Virus record (IMG/VR): IMGVR_UViG_2778261299_000006
Span: 1-5,682 of that record
Length of the DNA: 5,682 nucleotides
Source: a virus
Taxonomy: Duplodnaviria > Heunggongvirae > Uroviricota > Caudoviricetes
Direction: 5' to 3' (one strand)
A model generated the notes under the pieces. The model saw only the letters and a list, made by a program, of their open reading frames with translations, ran no database searches and had not been told where the DNA came from. Positions 1-5,682 of this stretch are shown in pieces. Numbering within the stretch: the stretch's first letter is position 1; each line of letters starts with the position of its first letter. The translations under genes and the position numbers were made by a program.

Positions 1-111
1 GAAGCCAGCCACGCCGACCTCGCCTGGGCGACCATGCACGCCCTGTTAAATGAGCCACTCACCGCCGGTATCAGCACTCCGCTGACATCCACCATTCTGG
101 AGTTTTACTGA
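1..111 (+). CDS. P: Terminase large (ATPase) subunit, gpP-like; 3' end only, 5' end lies outside the window
   Basis: Frame 1 is open from base 1 for 36 codons (...LAWATMHALLNEPLTAGISTPLTSTILEFY) to TGA at 109-111, which overlaps the ATG of the next gene by one base (TGATG). In P2 the late operon reads P then Q, so the gene directly upstream of the portal is expected to be the terminase. The assignment rests on synteny only; 36 residues are too few to recognise the family directly. Confidence 0.6.
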   Translation, partial: EASHADLAWATMHALLNEPLTAGISTPLTSTILEFY

Positions 112-1130
112 TGAGCAAGAAAAAAGGGAAAACACCGCAACCTGCGGCAAAAACAATGACCGCCAGCGCCCCGAAAATGGAGGCATTCACCTTTGGTGAG
201 CCGGTACCGGTACTCGACCGCCGTGACATTCTGGATTACGTCGAGTGCATCAGTAACGGCAGATGGTATGAGCCGCCGGTCAGCTTTACCGGTCTGGCAA
301 AAAGCCTGCGTGCTGCCGTGCATCACAGCTCACCGATTTACGTCAAACGCAATATTCTGGCCTCGACATTTATCCCGCATCCGTGGCTTTCCCAGCAGGA
401 TTTCAGCCGCTTTGTGCTGGATTTTCTGGTGTTCGGTAATGCGTTTCTGGAAAAGCGTTACAGCACCACCGGTAAAGTTATCAGGCTGGAAACCTCACCG
501 GCAAAATATACCCGCCGTGGTGTGGAAGAGGATGTTTACTGGTGGGTGCCGTCCTTCAACGAGCCGACAGCCTTCGCGCCCGGCTCCGTGTTTCACCTGC
601 TGGAGCCGGATATTAATCAGGAGCTGTACGGCCTGCCGGAATATCTCAGCGCCCTTAACTCTGCCTGGCTGAATGAGTCGGCCACGCTGTTCCGCCGCAA
701 GTATTACGAAAACGGCGCACATGCCGGATACATCATGTACGTCACCGATGCCGTGCAGGATCGCAACGATATCGAAATGCTTCGCGAAAACATGGTTAAG
801 TCGAAAGGCCGCAATAACTTTAAAAACCTGTTTCTCTACGCCCCGCAGGGAAAAGCCGACGGTATTAAAATTATCCCGCTCAGTGAAGTGGCGACGAAGG
901 ACGATTTTTTTAATATCAAAAAAGCCAGTGCGGAAGATCTAATGAGTGCACATCGAGTCCCCCCGCAAATGATTGGGATGATGCCTAATAATGCAGGAGG
1001 ATTTGGCGATGTAGTTAAAGCTGCTAAAGTTTTTGTCAGGAATGAGTTAGGGCACCTACAATCGCGAATGAAGGAATTGAACTCATGGATAGGTGAAACC
1101 GTTATAACATTTAACAATTACTCGTTATAA
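111..1130 (+). CDS. Q: Phage portal protein, P2 gpQ-like (339 aa)
   Basis: ATG at 111 is preceded by GGAG (99-102) at an 8-nt spacing. The 339-aa product (MSKKKGKTPQPAAKTMTASAPKMEAFTFGEPVPVLDRRDILDYVECISNGRWYEPPV...) matches my recollection of the P2 portal protein Q. GC is about 55% over the first part of the gene. Position is consistent with P2 synteny: P then Q, then cos. Confidence 0.9.
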   Translation: MSKKKGKTPQPAAKTMTASAPKMEAFTFGEPVPVLDRRDILDYVECISNGRWYEPPVSFTGLAKSLRAAVHHSSPIYVKRNILASTFIPHPWLSQQDFSRFVLDFLVFGNAFLEKRYSTTGKVIRLETSPAKYTRRGVEEDVYWWVPSFNEPTAFAPGSVFHLLEPDINQELYGLPEYLSALNSAWLNESATLFRRKYYENGAHAGYIMYVTDAVQDRNDIEMLRENMVKSKGRNNFKNLFLYAPQGKADGIKIIPLSEVATKDDFFNIKKASAEDLMSAHRVPPQMIGMMPNNAGGFGDVVKAAKVFVRNELGHLQSRMKELNSWIGETVITFNNYSL

Positions 1131-1136
1131 ACCCTG

Positions 1137-1160
1137 CAGGCTTTGGCTCGCCAAAGCCTG
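1137..1160. terminator. GC-rich inverted repeat between convergent genes; putative bidirectional terminator
   Basis: caggctttggc (1137-1147) and gccaaagcctg (1150-1160) are perfect reverse complements (about a 10-bp stem with a ctcg loop). It sits in the 35-bp gap between the stop of Q (1128-1130) and the stop of the minus-strand partner gene (1166-1168). There is no clean U-tract on the plus strand; on the minus strand it is followed by GGTTTATAA, which is only weakly T-rich. Confidence 0.45.
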
Positions 1161-1165
1161 TAAGA

Positions 1166-1783
1166 TCAAGCAGATAGGCAAAACGTTTCTGTTTGCCCCA
1201 AGTGTTCAAACACAGTAATCGATGTTACTTTTCCGGCGCTTATTTTATTAAGGAATTTCAATATTTGTTGAGGCTCCTCCATGACTGCTGTTTTCTTGAT
1301 TATAAATCCTTCAAGATTTTTCAAGCTGTATCGCTGACTTGAGTTCTCAAGAGCAGCAATCATTGCCGAACTGCGCATATCTCTATGTCCACTAGCCCTA
1401 CAAACGACAGCATAATTTAAATCAAGCTCTACAAAATTTTGCCTTGTCAACTCTGGAAGGTGTTTACATACAAAATGAAATAAAGTCGTAACACCTTCAT
1501 GTATTTTCAACCTTATATCATCCTTTTGTGAACGTCCTTCTTTAAATTCAATGAAGTACAATTTATCTTCATGTAAAAATAAAGCATCCGGTGATTTTTC
1601 TTTAAGCTCACGCCTATAAATAGGCGAGCAATTTAACACCGTATCATAGTTAAAGCCCTTCGAATCACAAATAATAAAATACCGTCCCCCGGCATCATTG
1701 TAACTTAATTCGGTTACATCAACCATTGAATCATGGTATACTTCACATAATTTTCTAAAGATAAGCTCCTCATTAGAAATCAT
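1166..1783 (-). CDS. 205-aa partner protein of the ATPase, unknown family; possible PD-(D/E)xK-type nuclease effector
   Basis: ATG at 1783-1781 is preceded by AGGAG at a 7-nt spacing (minus-strand context gaatcAGGAGtatttggATG). The start overlaps the upstream ATPase gene by 11 nt, implying translational coupling. GC is about 30%. Residues 66-82 read DALFLHEDKLYFIEFKE, i.e. a hydrophobic strand ending in D73 followed by E79-x-K81, a pattern compatible with a PD-(D/E)xK core. I see no CxxC pairs as in HNH and no ordered E...DxD TOPRIM motif. Confidence 0.75.
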   Translation of the reverse strand: MISNEELIFRKLCEVYHDSMVDVTELSYNDAGGRYFIICDSKGFNYDTVLNCSPIYRRELKEKSPDALFLHEDKLYFIEFKEGRSQKDDIRLKIHEGVTTLFHFVCKHLPELTRQNFVELDLNYAVVCRASGHRDMRSSAMIAALENSSQRYSLKNLEGFIIKKTAVMEEPQQILKFLNKISAGKVTSITVFEHLGQTETFCLSA

Positions 1784-3101
1784 CCAAATACTCCTGATTC
1801 AATTCTTTTAATGGTGTTGCCAAAAGATTAATTGCATATGCAACATTATCAGTAATATCAACAAAAGATGTAAATTCTTCCCCAGGGAATCGCTCGCTTA
1901 TATAGAACCGATTTTCAACCCCAATTTTGTCGCTAAAATGTTTAAGAGCATCAATAATATATGGGCTATGTGTTGTAATTATTATATCAACCCCCATAGA
2001 CACTAACTCACAAATAATCTCAGCATAGAAAACCTGCCACTTTGGATGTAAGTTCACCTCTGGTTCATCAATAATCAGCAACGAATTATCTACTGCTGCC
2101 CCACACTTAACAAGCATATCAAGAATACCTAAAGACTTTATTCCTGACGCAATATTACTCGATGTGACTTTATAGCCTTGCTTCTCTAGAAAAAAATCAT
2201 TCTTTTCAATATCATAAACCACCTCACCACTGAAAGCGGCATTGATTTTTTTAGATATACGAAGTGATTCATTTAAAAATGAGCCATCATCAAAAATATC
2301 CGAATGCACGAATAAATTATAAACTGAATCGCTTAGTTTTATTGATAGATCTTTCACATGCAATGGAACAGTTAGACGTCCTGATTCACCGTTACTATCA
2401 AATAAAGTTTTAGCAAAACGAACCAAATTATGAAATTGCATAATACTTGGAGAGTCAACATATGTTGCGTCGACATATCCTAAGCCATCAGTATAATCAA
2501 ATTGTGATATACCATCTTTAGTCCATTTAATATCAATTAACTGACTAACACCATCAACAACTTCCAGAGATGCTTTAACTGGATTTTGATTACCCTTCTG
2601 AATAATTTCCCCTCTAAATTCAGAGTAAAAGGCCTTACGCAGAGCGCGGTTGATAGCAGATAACTCATCATCTGGCTCAAGCATTATATCTCTGATTTTT
2701 CTTATATCAGAGAGTACAGAATCCGCCATCAACTCTGGAAGAAGACCTTCATCAATCAATTTATATAGATAACTCTCCCTCTCAGCCAAAGTTTTAGAGA
2801 TATCTATTTTTAGAGAGGCATAAAATTTTCTTGGATTGAATAACTCTCTAATTTCCGGCGTAGCAGCAATATTAATCCTCCTACGCAGATTAAAATATAT
2901 TTTCTCTACAATAGATGTAATTCTATCCTCTTTGTCTTCTTCTAAATCTTCTTGATAACGAGATATCGCCTTTACCATTGAAAACAGTATCTTCCCTACG
3001 GTACTCTTTCCCGTATCATTTTCACCAGTTATGACAGTTAATCCACCAACTGAAACATCAGCTTCCGCAATAGTTCCAAAATTATTAATTTTTATACGCA
3101 T
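1773..3101 (-). CDS. ABC-type / AAA_21-like (OLD or SMC-like) P-loop ATPase, 442 aa; first gene of a two-gene operon
   Basis: Walker A GENDTGKST (aa 26-34) is encoded at 3003-3026, verified by reverse-complement translation. A signature-like SSNIASGIKSLG lies at aa 314-325. Walker B LLIIDEPE (aa 341-348) is encoded at 2061-2081, also verified. An H-loop-like IIITTHSP lies at aa 373-380. About 300 residues separate Walker A and B, which is typical of ABC/SMC-like defence ATPases. ATG at 3101-3099. GC is about 30%, far below the flanking phage core. Confidence 0.85.
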   Translation of the reverse strand: MRIKINNFGTIAEADVSVGGLTVITGENDTGKSTVGKILFSMVKAISRYQEDLEEDKEDRITSIVEKIYFNLRRRINIAATPEIRELFNPRKFYASLKIDISKTLAERESYLYKLIDEGLLPELMADSVLSDIRKIRDIMLEPDDELSAINRALRKAFYSEFRGEIIQKGNQNPVKASLEVVDGVSQLIDIKWTKDGISQFDYTDGLGYVDATYVDSPSIMQFHNLVRFAKTLFDSNGESGRLTVPLHVKDLSIKLSDSVYNLFVHSDIFDDGSFLNESLRISKKINAAFSGEVVYDIEKNDFFLEKQGYKVTSSNIASGIKSLGILDMLVKCGAAVDNSLLIIDEPEVNLHPKWQVFYAEIICELVSMGVDIIITTHSPYIIDALKHFSDKIGVENRFYISERFPGEEFTSFVDITDNVAYAINLLATPLKELNQEYLDDF

Positions 3102-3132
3102 AAACTATCTCACTGTACGCCAGATATCCAAC

Positions 3133-3170
3133 CTTATGAATACTTTAGCATATTTCCACAAAGATGACAC
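3133..3170 (-). promoter_or_regulatory. Putative sigma70-type promoter region for the ATPase-partner operon
   Basis: On the minus strand, GTGTCA (plus coordinates 3165-3170), a 17-bp spacer, then TAAAGT (3142-3147). An alternative pairing is TTGTGG (3156-3161) with CATAAG (3133-3138). Both are only 4/6 or 3/6 matches to consensus. The region is AT-rich and lies 30-70 bp upstream of the ATG at 3101 and 25-60 bp from cos. This is a weak call. Confidence 0.25.
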
Positions 3171-3194
3171 TGGAGGCTGCAGGCCTCGCGCGCA

Positions 3195-3213
3195 GTGCTT
3201 TCCCCGCCTCGCC
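3195..3213. other. cos site: 19-nt cohesive-end sequence of P2-type phages (cosN), joined/intact form
   Basis: Plus strand 3195-3213 is gtgctttccccgcctcgcc, the exact reverse complement of GGCGAGGCGGGGAAAGCAC. I recall that sequence as the P2/P4 cohesive end, and it is at the expected place between the Q side and the A side of the genome. The orientation (GGCGAGG... reading on the minus strand toward Q) fits the P2 left end. Confidence 0.8.
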
Positions 3214-3335
3214 CGCCCGCTTCGCTGGTCACATTTAATGCAGTTGCATGAAGGCGTCAAAACCACACCGGTACTGGCAACAAGTGACCATAAAAACGGC
3301 TTTTGGCACATGCAAAACAATGCACCTAATGCACG

Positions 3336-3366
3336 CACACAAAAACGGGGAAAGTCGCTTTCCCCC
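3336..3366 (-). terminator. Rho-independent terminator downstream of the 174-aa gene
   Basis: Minus strand reads GGGGAAAG-cga-CTTTCCCC (plus coordinates 3347-3365, an 8-bp perfect GC-rich stem) followed immediately by GTTTTTGTGTG. It starts 11 nt after the TGA stop of the 174-aa gene (3379-3377). Confidence 0.7.
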
Positions 3367-3376
3367 ACAAACATTA

Positions 3377-3901
3377 TCAACGCACCGGAATGTAAGATTC
3401 AAGGTCTCTGATTACGGCTTGTTTCAGTGCTTCAGATACAGCCTCAAGTTCTGGCAATGCTGGCTTTTCACTTAAGTTCGTTTCAAATTCCCCGCTTCCT
3501 ATTACTAGCGTAAAGCCATTTCCATCACGTAGCAGTTTCAAAGGAATAATCACGTTTAACTTAGGATGAGCAACCGGTGACTTATCCACTGTAAGACCAA
3601 TAAAAAATGACAAAATCCCATCTGCATCAGGCAACAGATCGTGTAACTGAACTTTAGATTTTTCACCATCTTTAATTGCAGCGACAAAAACATAATTTTC
3701 AGTGGGGTTTTGCCCTGGATAGCCCCAGCAAGTTTGCTCAAGCTCAAGCGACCCCTCAAAGTTTTTCGCAATCAGCCCAACAATATTTTGTAAACGCTCT
3801 TTTTCCTCTCTCTGTAACCGAACGATTTCAATATACTTATCTCTTATAGTCTGAAAAGTAATCACTTTAGTCTCCTTAAACGGCTTACACAGAAACAGCA
3901 T
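3377..3901 (-). CDS. Hypothetical protein, 174 aa (162 aa if it starts at GTG 3865); orphan accessory gene at the tin/old-equivalent position
   Basis: ORF from ATG 3901-3899 to TGA 3379-3377. GGGGG lies 4 nt upstream of the ATG. An alternative start GTG at 3865-3863 is preceded by AAGGAG at a 5-nt spacing, a better-positioned SD. The gene has its own intrinsic terminator (3336-3366). GC is about 40-42%. I recognise no family motif by eye. Confidence 0.65.
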   Translation of the reverse strand: MLFLCKPFKETKVITFQTIRDKYIEIVRLQREEKERLQNIVGLIAKNFEGSLELEQTCWGYPGQNPTENYVFVAAIKDGEKSKVQLHDLLPDADGILSFFIGLTVDKSPVAHPKLNVIIPLKLLRDGNGFTLVIGSGEFETNLSEKPALPELEAVSEALKQAVIRDLESYIPVR

Positions 3902-3929
3902 TTAACCCCCTGATAATATTTCTTTCAAT
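3900..3929 (-). promoter_or_regulatory. Putative promoter for the 174-aa gene
   Basis: On the minus strand, TTGAAA (plus coordinates 3924-3929), an 18-bp spacer, then TTAAAT (3900-3905). The -10 overlaps the ATG at 3901, so this promoter would favour the GTG 3865 start with its AAGGAG SD. An alternative -10, TATTAT (3913-3918), has a poor -35. Low confidence. Confidence 0.25.
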
Positions 3930-4213
3930 AATTTTCCTAACGCCTCGCTACGCTCGTTGTTCAACCCCGTCAGCCCTGAAAACAAGTTTCACGACTGGCG
4001 GCGTTCTCTATCGTCTGCGTGGTGGTGACGTAACTCTTGATTGACCGATATGGTTAAACCGCCCGTCATTATCCCGGACTATTTCGGCACACCCGACCAG
4101 CTCATCGGGCGTCAGATTTTCGTTGACCATAATCCGCTGTAAACGCTGAACAATAGCCATCAGCTTGATATTTTTAGTTTTATGGTGCGGTATCTCGCCT
4201 GGTATTCTGTGCA

Positions 4214-4666
4214 TTATCCAAGCCACCCGTTTTGCTGTGCACGCTCCATCTGTTCATCTGAATAGTTCCATGCTCCATCCGTGGCAACCATTGCCCCGCC
4301 AGACATCCCTGTCTCTGGTTCATACATAACAGCAAGGCCGAGCTGATGCATAATTTCATGATTAATTCTGAATACCAGACCACGCTCACTAAGTTCTTTC
4401 CAGTTCACAATCTCATATGCGCATGTATTAAGCAGATCAATACTTAGCAAGACATAATCTTCCAGCCAGTCTGACAGGTCAGTAACATCTGTTATCCGGG
4501 CTTCAACCTTTCGCCCCGTGTACACACCCTGCACCCATTCATGCAAAATCAACGTGTCCCCGCGCTCATAATTACGGTCATTTTTCCGAAACTCTGCGCG
4601 TTTCTTTCCTTCCAGCACAAGGTCGAAATATTTTGCGTGCAGCTTTACCTCGTGAATTTTTGCCAT
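4214..4666 (-). CDS. ASCH / DUF3850-like domain protein (orf91-position gene) with a C-terminal extension carrying HEIMH; 150 aa
   Basis: True start is taken as ATG 4666-4664 (MAKIHEVKLHAKYFDLVLEGKKRAEFRKNDRNYERGDTLILHEW...), not the upstream GTG at 4702 reported in the ORF track. GGAG lies 8 nt upstream. The ATG overlaps the TAA stop of gene A by one base (TAATG). The N-terminal ~75 aa resemble the ASCH-like DUF3850 pattern as I recall it. The C-terminal half contains INHEIMHQLGL...YEPE. The position immediately downstream of A matches P2 orf91. Confidence 0.75.
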   Translation of the reverse strand: MAKIHEVKLHAKYFDLVLEGKKRAEFRKNDRNYERGDTLILHEWVQGVYTGRKVEARITDVTDLSDWLEDYVLLSIDLLNTCAYEIVNWKELSERGLVFRINHEIMHQLGLAVMYEPETGMSGGAMVATDGAWNYSDEQMERAQQNGWLG

Positions 4667-5682
4667 TATGTCCACTCCATTACTGTTGAGAATCCCGGCC
4701 ACTCATCAGCGACCGGATACGTGAATTTTTTCCCGTCATAATTTACGGTCGCGCCACGCGCCAGCGCCTCAAGCTCCCATCGCTGCGGCCTGATACCGTT
4801 CTGAGCAAGGTCAACGCGGATACGGGTAATTTGCATTCTTTCCGACCGGGTCAGTCTGACCGATGGTGCAATTTCATGTGGTTTTAACGGGCTTCCGTTT
4901 CTTTGCTGACGGTTTGGCGTTCTCAGGTCGTGTTTTAATGCGCCCCTGAGCGCCCTCACGACCTCCGGTTCATTCCATTCAATAACACCGCCATCAACCA
5001 GATTAAGCACTGCTGCGGCGTGCTCAGAAGGTGTGGGAACCAGTAACGAAGTATCACCACCGGAGAGCTTTCCACAGTTATTGACAGGACTCCGAGGCGC
5101 GGCGATGCCGCTTTTTAAAGTCAAAGGCTCAACGACCGGCACTTTCGGCACAATGCGCCAGTCCGTGGTTCTGGTGATATGAATATGACGCGCGCCGAGA
5201 TGCGGCGCGTAAATGCCGACCACTCTCTCGACTTCTTCCTCGTACTCGTTAACGTCATCCGACGGGCTACGGGCGACCCTGACAGTCTGACAATCGCGCG
5301 GGACATTTGCCCCGCCCTGCGCGCTGATATACAACGCAAAATCACCACTGTCTGCGGCGGCGCGTGCAGCCTCGACGCGTTCGTCAAACTCATCAGCAAT
5401 GCTGACGCCGCGAGGCAATTTGCGTAGTTCACGGTAAGCACCCATTGTCGGCAGGCCAACCGTTTTAAATTGCGGAATGCGCCACGTTGACGCCCATGCG
5501 GTAACAGCCGCGGCAGTATCTTTCAGCGGTCTGCCGGTATCGTTATCGAGCTGCCCATCCAGTGCATAGCCGTCGATATTTTTTGAGATGTATTTCGCGA
5601 TATACCCCGCAGCACCGCCCCGGTTAAGGTGTTTTGCCTGAAAACGGTTTCGCGCGGCTCCTCTTTCGTCACCATCCTCTTT
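4666..5682 (-). CDS. A: Rolling-circle replication initiator, P2 gpA-like; C-terminal 338 codons, 5' end outside the window
   Basis: I translated the minus-strand frame by hand from 5682 down to TAA at 4668-4666 and found no stop, so the gene enters from beyond the window edge. It contains GYIAKYISKNIDGY (Tyr codons at 5604-5602 and 5592-5590), the Y-x-x-K-Y two-tyrosine motif of phiX174/P2-type RCR initiators. The second Tyr is 308 residues from the C-terminus, which fits the P2 A active-site position as I remember it. GC is about 55%. Confidence 0.9.
   Translation of the reverse strand, partial: KEDGDERGAARNRFQAKHLNRGGAAGYIAKYISKNIDGYALDGQLDNDTGRPLKDTAAAVTAWASTWRIPQFKTVGLPTMGAYRELRKLPRGVSIADEFDERVEAARAAADSGDFALYISAQGGANVPRDCQTVRVARSPSDDVNEYEEEVERVVGIYAPHLGARHIHITRTTDWRIVPKVPVVEPLTLKSGIAAPRSPVNNCGKLSGGDTSLLVPTPSEHAAAVLNLVDGGVIEWNEPEVVRALRGALKHDLRTPNRQQRNGSPLKPHEIAPSVRLTRSERMQITRIRVDLAQNGIRPQRWELEALARGATVNYDGKKFTYPVADEWPGFSTVMEWT

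Follow-up and report, generated by a model that had tools for sequence, protein, structure and literature searches.

Positions 1166-3101 of the 5,682-bp stretch of viral DNA analysed here (the window) are best read, with a probability of roughly 0.75, as a self-contained anti-phage module in a P2-like prophage hotspot, in which an ABC ATPase serves as sensor or licenser and a small PD-(D/E)xK nuclease as effector. This reading draws on the location of the cassette in the hotspot, on a conserved motif and a predicted fold in the smaller protein, on its obligatory pairing with the ATPase, and on the mobility of the pair.

Table 1. Features of the window (coordinates in window positions).
Feature	Position	Strand	Evidence or remark
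Portal gene Q, P2-type	111..1130	+	NCBIfam portal_PBSX 6e-78; phrog_68 1e-172; conserved hotspot flank
Stable hairpin	1134..1163		RNA fold -21.4 kcal/mol, z = -4.45, 0/200 shuffles as stable
Partner (effector) gene, 205 aa, putative PD-(D/E)xK protein	1166..1783	-	Conserved motif, predicted fold
Overlap of ATPase stop and partner start, 11 nt, ATGATTTCTAA	1773..1783	-	AGGAG 8 nt upstream of partner ATG
OLD-type ABC ATPase gene, 442 aa	1773..3101	-	Pfam AAA_21 5e-19, AAA_15 3e-18
P2 cos cohesive-end 19-mer, GGCGAGGCGGGGAAAGCAC	3195..3213	-	Exact, 0 mismatches; 0 expected in shuffles
Strong intrinsic-terminator-like hairpin with T-run	3345..3368	-	Follows the 174-aa ORF
ORF, 174 aa, phrog_5091	3377..3901	-	Function unassigned; no Pfam, PADLOC or NCBIfam match
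ORF, 72 aa, phrog_11386	4008..4226	-	Overlaps DUF3850/DUF7415 gene; common in P2-like phages
DUF3850 (ASCH-like, RNA-binding-type) + DUF7415 gene	4214..4702	-	Overlaps gpA end; common in P2-like phages
Replication endonuclease gene A, 3' part	4666..5682	-	phrog_91 'nicking at origin of replication' 1e-78; other conserved flank

The window represents the cos-proximal part of a P2-like prophage, with backbone DNA 96-97% identical to deposited genomes of Peduovirus and P2-like phages (Table 1). An interrupted gpA, hinted at by the ORF listing, was ruled out by frame translation, in which the gpA frame stays open up to the window end. On the side away from portal gene Q, the cassette is bounded by an exact match to the 19-mer of the P2 cohesive end. 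The cassette lies between gpA and gpQ and next to cos, and its GC content of 0.35, compared with 0.50-0.56 in the flanks, marks it as foreign in composition. This gpA-to-gpQ interval adjoining cos is the defence hotspot of P2, which holds old and tin in P2 itself (PMC9122126, PMC9519451).

Within the interval, the ATPase-nuclease pair has cos on its gpA side and the stop codon of portal gene Q on the other. On the P2 map, old and tin lie across cos from this position. The hotspot in the window is therefore loaded on both sides of cos, positions 3377-4702 being the gpA-side part, and the 174-aa ORF there is possibly a separate hotspot gene with another accessory or defence role. The 96.6% match shared with seven other E. 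coli chromosomes (window 1101-3249) ends at about 3249, just past cos, and the gpA side of an E. coli P2 prophage locus (L001) is without the 3377-4702 genes, showing roughly a 1-kb gap followed by gpA. The two halves of the hotspot seem to assort separately, breaking near cos, in keeping with the exchange mediated by cos that Rousset et al. proposed.

Proximity to cos could in principle point to a function in the phage life cycle, as a packaging, recombination or resolvase accessory of P2-like phages. This explanation is scarcely credible: the cassette is present in 0 of 50,697 deposited phage genomes and in 8 of 5,426 complete E. coli genomes; outside phages, the same pair is found beside a transposase or an integrase or in cassette arrays; and in GC content the cassette is foreign to the phage backbone.

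In the partner protein, the 205-aa ORF, the sequence strings (DALFLHEDKLYFIEFKE at residues 66-82, EELIFRKLCEVYHD at 5-18 and RYFIICD at 34-40) and residues D73, E79 and K81 are all found exactly where the first-pass annotation had placed them. That annotation proposed a restriction-endonuclease-like site composed of D73 and E79-x-K81. A bare D...ExK pattern says little, because 74% of shuffles of the protein contain D-x(4-20)-[DE]xK; the form PD-x(8-20)-[DE]xK appears in 2.3%. Conservation across homologues is therefore considered here at two depths. A total of 64 homologues were found, all labelled "hypothetical" or unnamed except for one evidently erroneous automatic label, and 44 of these, extending down to 35% identity, make up the close-family alignment, in which the invariant residues include S27, D47, N51, P65, D66, F77, E79, K81, G83, R91 and K93. 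Furthermore, a HMMER scan of 1.84 billion cluster representatives yielded 569 related clusters at E <= 1e-3; in the 53 that form the distant set, about 20% identical to the partner, D66, E79, F80, K81 and K93 are invariant, D47 and S27 nearly so, and position 96 is acidic in 49.

Of the proposed site, E79 and K81 are thus borne out by invariance in both sets (44 + 53 sequences). D73 is not: the position is Asp in only 15 of the 44 close and 15 of the 53 distant relatives, and it sits in the turn of a beta-hairpin between strands 67-71 and 74-81. The aspartate conserved in 100% of sequences is D66, which follows the close-family-invariant P65 and aligns with D53 of WonB, the effector of the WonAB system compared below. 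Read from these alignments, the motif is P65-D66-x12-E79-x-K81 in textbook form with the canonical 12-residue spacing, and the concern that a 5-residue D-to-E spacing would be short for the fold therefore vanishes. The acidic N-terminal helix that had been counted among the fold elements does not hold up either, as its acidic residues vary (E5 in 29/44, E6 in 22/44, E14 in 22/44, D18 in 11/44). A catalytic set of D73, E79 and K81 with 5-residue spacing and a catalytic residue contributed by the N-terminal acidic helix is consequently very improbable, even with all its residues present and two of them invariant. The putative active site instead consists of D66, E79 and K81 together with the invariant K93 and the acidic E96 on the next helix, the latter two being, to judge from their conservation, probably additional active-site or substrate-binding residues. 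The helix that follows the ExK strand carries a conserved D-I-R-L-K-I-H-E-G stretch (residues 89-97; window ~1493-1519, minus strand).

At the structural level, an AlphaFold2 model built on the 44-sequence alignment (pLDDT 87.1, pTM 0.84; confidence is low for residues around 131-150 only) upholds the restriction-endonuclease-like fold suggested at first. D66 directly precedes strand 67-71, E79 and K81 lie in strand 74-81, and a long helix (87-108) bearing R91, K93, H95 and E96 is followed by strand 122-128, a predicted layout that corresponds to the canonical alpha-beta-beta-beta-alpha-beta core; from the model, we infer that the catalytic residues cluster in space. A Foldseek search of the model against PDB and BFVD returned nothing at E < 0.05, and the sub-threshold lists are enriched for the same fold, including Nt.BspD6I, HincII, Mus81/Hef and Hjc as well as the cap-snatching endonucleases of bunya- and arenaviruses and HamA. 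Searches of the partner against Pfam, NCBIfam and PADLOC profiles gave no significant match, PHROGs assigned it to an unnamed family, and PDB sequence searches with the single sequence and two profiles found no solved relative. The weak profile matches scattered across the partner family all belong to PD-(D/E)xK groups, namely L_protein_N, CARF_PDDEXK, Cas4_II, HEC-02B (NERD) and Tox-REase-9. One further candidate relative, a fragment in a Clostridia MAG matching residues 63-127, was set aside as unreliable, with no ORF of at least 80 aa over the match and no ATPase.

The larger gene encodes an ATPase with a complete series of recognizable motifs: Walker A at G26-S33 (K32), an ABC-signature-like ASGIKS at 318-323, Walker B LLIIDEPE at 341-348 (D345-E346) and an H-loop TTHSPY at 376-381 (H378). 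Its best PADLOC matches are HEC-02A (1.1e-33), PD-T4-4_A (6e-31) and PDC-M47A (5e-26), with AriA, PtuA, Old and PDC-M29A (5e-13) ranking lower; in PDB, it matches OLD (6p74, 8e-8) and also UvrA, AriA and PtuA, and it is 30% identical to V. cholerae WonA over 110 aa. The PADLOC matches, in this ATPase as in those of its relatives, are confined to the C-terminal ~110 residues, with scores of about 100 bits, and the ATPase therefore forms a subfamily of its own.

With both components in view, the possibility arises that the partner retains the restriction-endonuclease fold without being a nuclease, acting as a nucleic-acid-binding or adaptor subunit while the ATPase or a host factor serves as effector. 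We consider this unlikely. The catalytic set (D, ExK, and the K and acidic residue of the following helix) remains invariant down to ~20% identity, more conservation than would be expected if the domain were degenerate; Pfam and PADLOC profiles detect no nuclease domain in the ATPase itself; and WonAB, a homologous system, cannot do without the corresponding lysine, as the K71A mutant of WonB loses both defence and toxicity (PMC12137116).

The 11-nt overlap and the AGGAG (Table 1) suggest, at the level of sequence, translational coupling of ATPase and partner. Downstream of the partner, the stable hairpin occupies the 35-nt gap between the convergent stops of portal gene Q (1130) and the partner (1166), and is probably a bidirectional terminator, though it lacks a T-run. 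The same pairing is found in nine other distinct loci, whose settings are of prophage, transposon, integrase-island or cassette-array type. In every full-length locus examined the ATPase comes first, and its gene either ends at the partner start or overlaps it. These loci include an E. coli P2 prophage (L001), a Pseudomonas locus next to a Tn5-like transposase (L002), a gammaproteobacterial MAG in which the pair adjoins an integrase (L004), an array of short cassettes in V. parahaemolyticus (L006; GCA_023823405.1, 1-12211), and loci in Enterovibrio, Cedecea, Xylophilus and Pseudoduganella (L008-L011). The V. parahaemolyticus array is a long run of small genes split by recurring 30-aa ORF calls; in appearance it resembles an integron cassette array, with presumed repeats of attC type. 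The two proteins diverge together across the loci: as the partner drops from 95% to 35-40% identity, the ATPase drops from 98% to 33%. Two partner relatives at ~20% identity have an overlapping 442-445-aa AAA_15/AAA_21 gene just ahead of them. The pairing is thus obligatory in the loci covered, and the pair is mobile.

The family is rare. Confirmed partner matches were obtained in 5 of 185,579 species-representative genomes, one of them the unreliable fragment. A 3,847-bp record within an E. coli 'complete genome' assembly (NZ_CP159691.1), 99.8% identical to this region, holds only a portal fragment, the partner, the ATPase and a hypothetical gene; it is more likely a piece of an assembly than a replicon. 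The RefSeq proteins WP_001220547 and WP_000624949 represent a 95-98% identical copy of the cassette, and this pair was entered in 2022 in the P2 hotspot catalogue of Rousset et al. as "AAA_15/AAA_15/AAA_21 + hypothetical" (PMC9122126, Table S5A); it is absent from the systems reported there as validated (PMC9122126).

In the mechanism that we propose, the 442-aa OLD-type ATPase would sense infection or license the response, activating or stabilizing the effector, and the 205-aa partner would carry the active site, with P65-D66 where one strand begins and E79-x-K81 on the strand after it, aided by K93 and E96. Nuclease activity, its dependence on the ATPase and the defence function are inferred by analogy with WonAB, HEC-02 and PD-T4-4. 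As in WonAB, the nuclease would be active only together with a functional ATPase, and on infection the pair would cleave nucleic acid, leading to arrest of the cell or the phage.

An overlapping gene pair on mobile elements is also what a plain toxin-antitoxin or addiction module would look like, with a nuclease toxin and an ATPase neutralizer that stabilize the prophage rather than defend against phages, and Pfam describes AAA_21 as a 'putative AbiEii toxin, Type IV TA system' domain. Such a role is nevertheless improbable. Toxicity of WonB requires WonA and its ATPase activity (PMC12137116), and simple sequestration is ruled out for WonAB by this dependence on active WonA; both HEC-02 genes are needed for defence (Payne et al., 2024); and the cassette resides in a hotspot dominated by defence systems (PMC9519451, PMC9122126). 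Toxin-antitoxin and abortive-infection roles are, in any case, not mutually exclusive.

The nucleic acid that an ATPase-licensed effector would cleave may be RNA. In WonAB, translation stops while genomic DNA stays intact, from which its authors suspect an RNA target (PMC12137116), and P2 OLD acts as a tRNase (bioRxiv 10.64898/2026.07.10.737580). Given the WonAB phenotype and the OLD finding, RNA (tRNA or rRNA, as against DNA) is a serious candidate for the substrate. A more ambitious and decidedly tentative version would make the cassette the E. coli founder of a large defence family that lacks annotation and stands apart from WonAB, PD-T4-4 and HEC-02, comprising ~570 clusters at 50% identity and always pairing a ~440-aa ABC ATPase with a 170-205-aa PD-(D/E)xK protein, in which the effector would be an ATPase-licensed RNase acting on tRNA or rRNA and not a DNase, the K93/E96 helix would specify RNA, and P2 and P4 would swap the cassette by cos recombination.

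The pairing of an ABC ATPase with a PD-(D/E)xK protein, which the first-pass annotation had taken as distinctive, is already known as a kind from three validated published examples, PD-T4-4 (2022), HEC-02 (2024) and WonAB (2025). The novelty is limited to a sizeable effector family that is without a solved relative, finds no significant counterpart among Pfam, NCBIfam and PADLOC v2 profiles and fails the PD-T4-4_B and HEC-02B profile tests. If confirmed, the cassette would add one more family to the growing "ABC ATPase sensor + small nuclease effector" class rather than a new category. The lack of significant effector matches in Pfam, NCBIfam and PADLOC v2 also means that the defence content of prophages is under-counted. 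The residue map for mutants comprises D66, E79, K81, K93 and E96 in the partner and Walker A K32, Walker B E346 and H378 in the ATPase.

Among known systems, WonAB of the V. cholerae WASA-1 prophage is an abortive-infection system composed of an OLD-type ABC ATPase, WonA, and the 141-aa WonB, described as a "variant of the PD-(D/E)xK fold" (PMC12137116); it is the "OLD-ABC ATPase + Novel REase" operon that the earlier in-silico ABC-ATPase survey of Krishnan et al. (2020) had detected, as cited in PMC12137116, and equals the PADLOC candidate PDC-M29. The window cassette shares with it a prophage-borne two-gene module in which an OLD-type ABC ATPase is followed by a small PD-(D/E)xK variant, a D...hhhhExKG motif that aligns residue for residue, and an acidic or amide residue on the next helix (E96/Q81). 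Supplementary Tables 4 and 5 of PMC12137116 provided 22 sequences of WonB and "Novel REase" proteins. Once aligned, these matched the window family in a profile-profile comparison (hhalign) at 91.1% probability (E 1e-6, 65 columns), which paired D66 with D53, E79 with E69, K81 with K71 and E96 with Q81, a residue invariant among the WonB proteins; with a more diverse alignment, the match was reduced to the motif (82% probability, 24 columns). The differences are also considerable, with 18% identity over the 65 columns, a longer partner (205 aa compared with 141 aa) that carries an additional helix and hairpin at the C-terminus (171-202), an S-P-D motif in place of the C-D of WonB, and an ATPase nearer to HEC-02A and PD-T4-4_A (1e-33, 6e-31) than to PDC-M29A (5e-13). 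PDC-M29B, an untested PADLOC candidate, corresponds to the WonB family, matching 22 of 22 WonB/Novel REase sequences (best 1.7e-70); it matches 11 of 44 window-family members at best E 0.0019 and not the window protein itself, and because this match is weak against 1.7e-70 for true members, the kinship with WonB is one of superfamily and not of family. No window-family member was found in the WonAB/Novel REase tables among the matches listed, and the published wonB qPCR primer had 0 matches in the viral contigs.

PD-T4-4 of E. coli ECOR58, a validated anti-phage system (Vassallo et al., 2022), resembles the cassette in its two-gene 'ATPase, nuclease' layout (1,973 bp compared with 1,936 bp here) and in the presence of PD-T4-4_A among the best PADLOC matches of the window ATPase, over the C-terminal ~110 residues only. 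Its effector is classed as PD-(D/E)xK in bioRxiv 10.1101/2025.07.10.664194 and treated likewise in PMC12137116, and is called HNH in bioRxiv 10.64898/2026.07.10.737580. Membership in PD-T4-4, as judged by PADLOC profiles, was rejected: the A match is partial, and PD-T4-4_B profiles matched neither the window protein (E <= 1) nor the 44 close members (E <= 0.1) or the 53 distant ones (E <= 0.001). Moreover, PD-T4-4 lies in an ICE-like element, unlike the window cassette with its P2 hotspot location (PMC9519451).

HEC-02 combines an ABC ATPase with a NERD-type PD-(D/E)xK protein whose motif is (D/E/Q)xK (Payne et al., 2024), and HEC-02A is the top-scoring PADLOC profile for the window ATPase. 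Membership was rejected here as well: HEC-02B profiles gave no match for the window protein and sporadic weak ones among its relatives (1/44 at 0.011, 3/53 at about 1e-4), and Pfam NERD gave no match. HEC-02 also differs from the window cassette in having been found embedded in Hma systems (Payne et al., 2024). The PADLOC profile PDLC04146, labelled HEC-02B, matches ATPases, and some A/B labels therefore seem to be swapped.

The initial view that the effector is not of the Septu, PARIS or Gabija type stands, since HNH and TOPRIM signatures are absent: the partner has no CxxC and no DxD, and no HNH, TOPRIM, PtuB, AriB or GajA profile matches it. Septu was thus rejected on the lack of an HNH or PtuB match and of CxxC pairs, PARIS on the lack of a DUF4435, TOPRIM or AriB match and of DxD, and Gabija/OLD on an ATPase that matches Old only in the ABC region, with no TOPRIM and with no helicase gene in the window by ORF list or profile search. 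The cassette nevertheless shares with all of these an ABC ATPase of the same clade as sensor or licensing component and the character of a defence module on mobile elements, and P2 old occupies the same hotspot (PMC9122126). Setting the window family beside WonAB, PD-T4-4 and HEC-02 could reveal how a single ATPase scaffold comes to license different REase-fold effectors, and whether these effectors target RNA, as do OLD, PARIS and probably WonAB.
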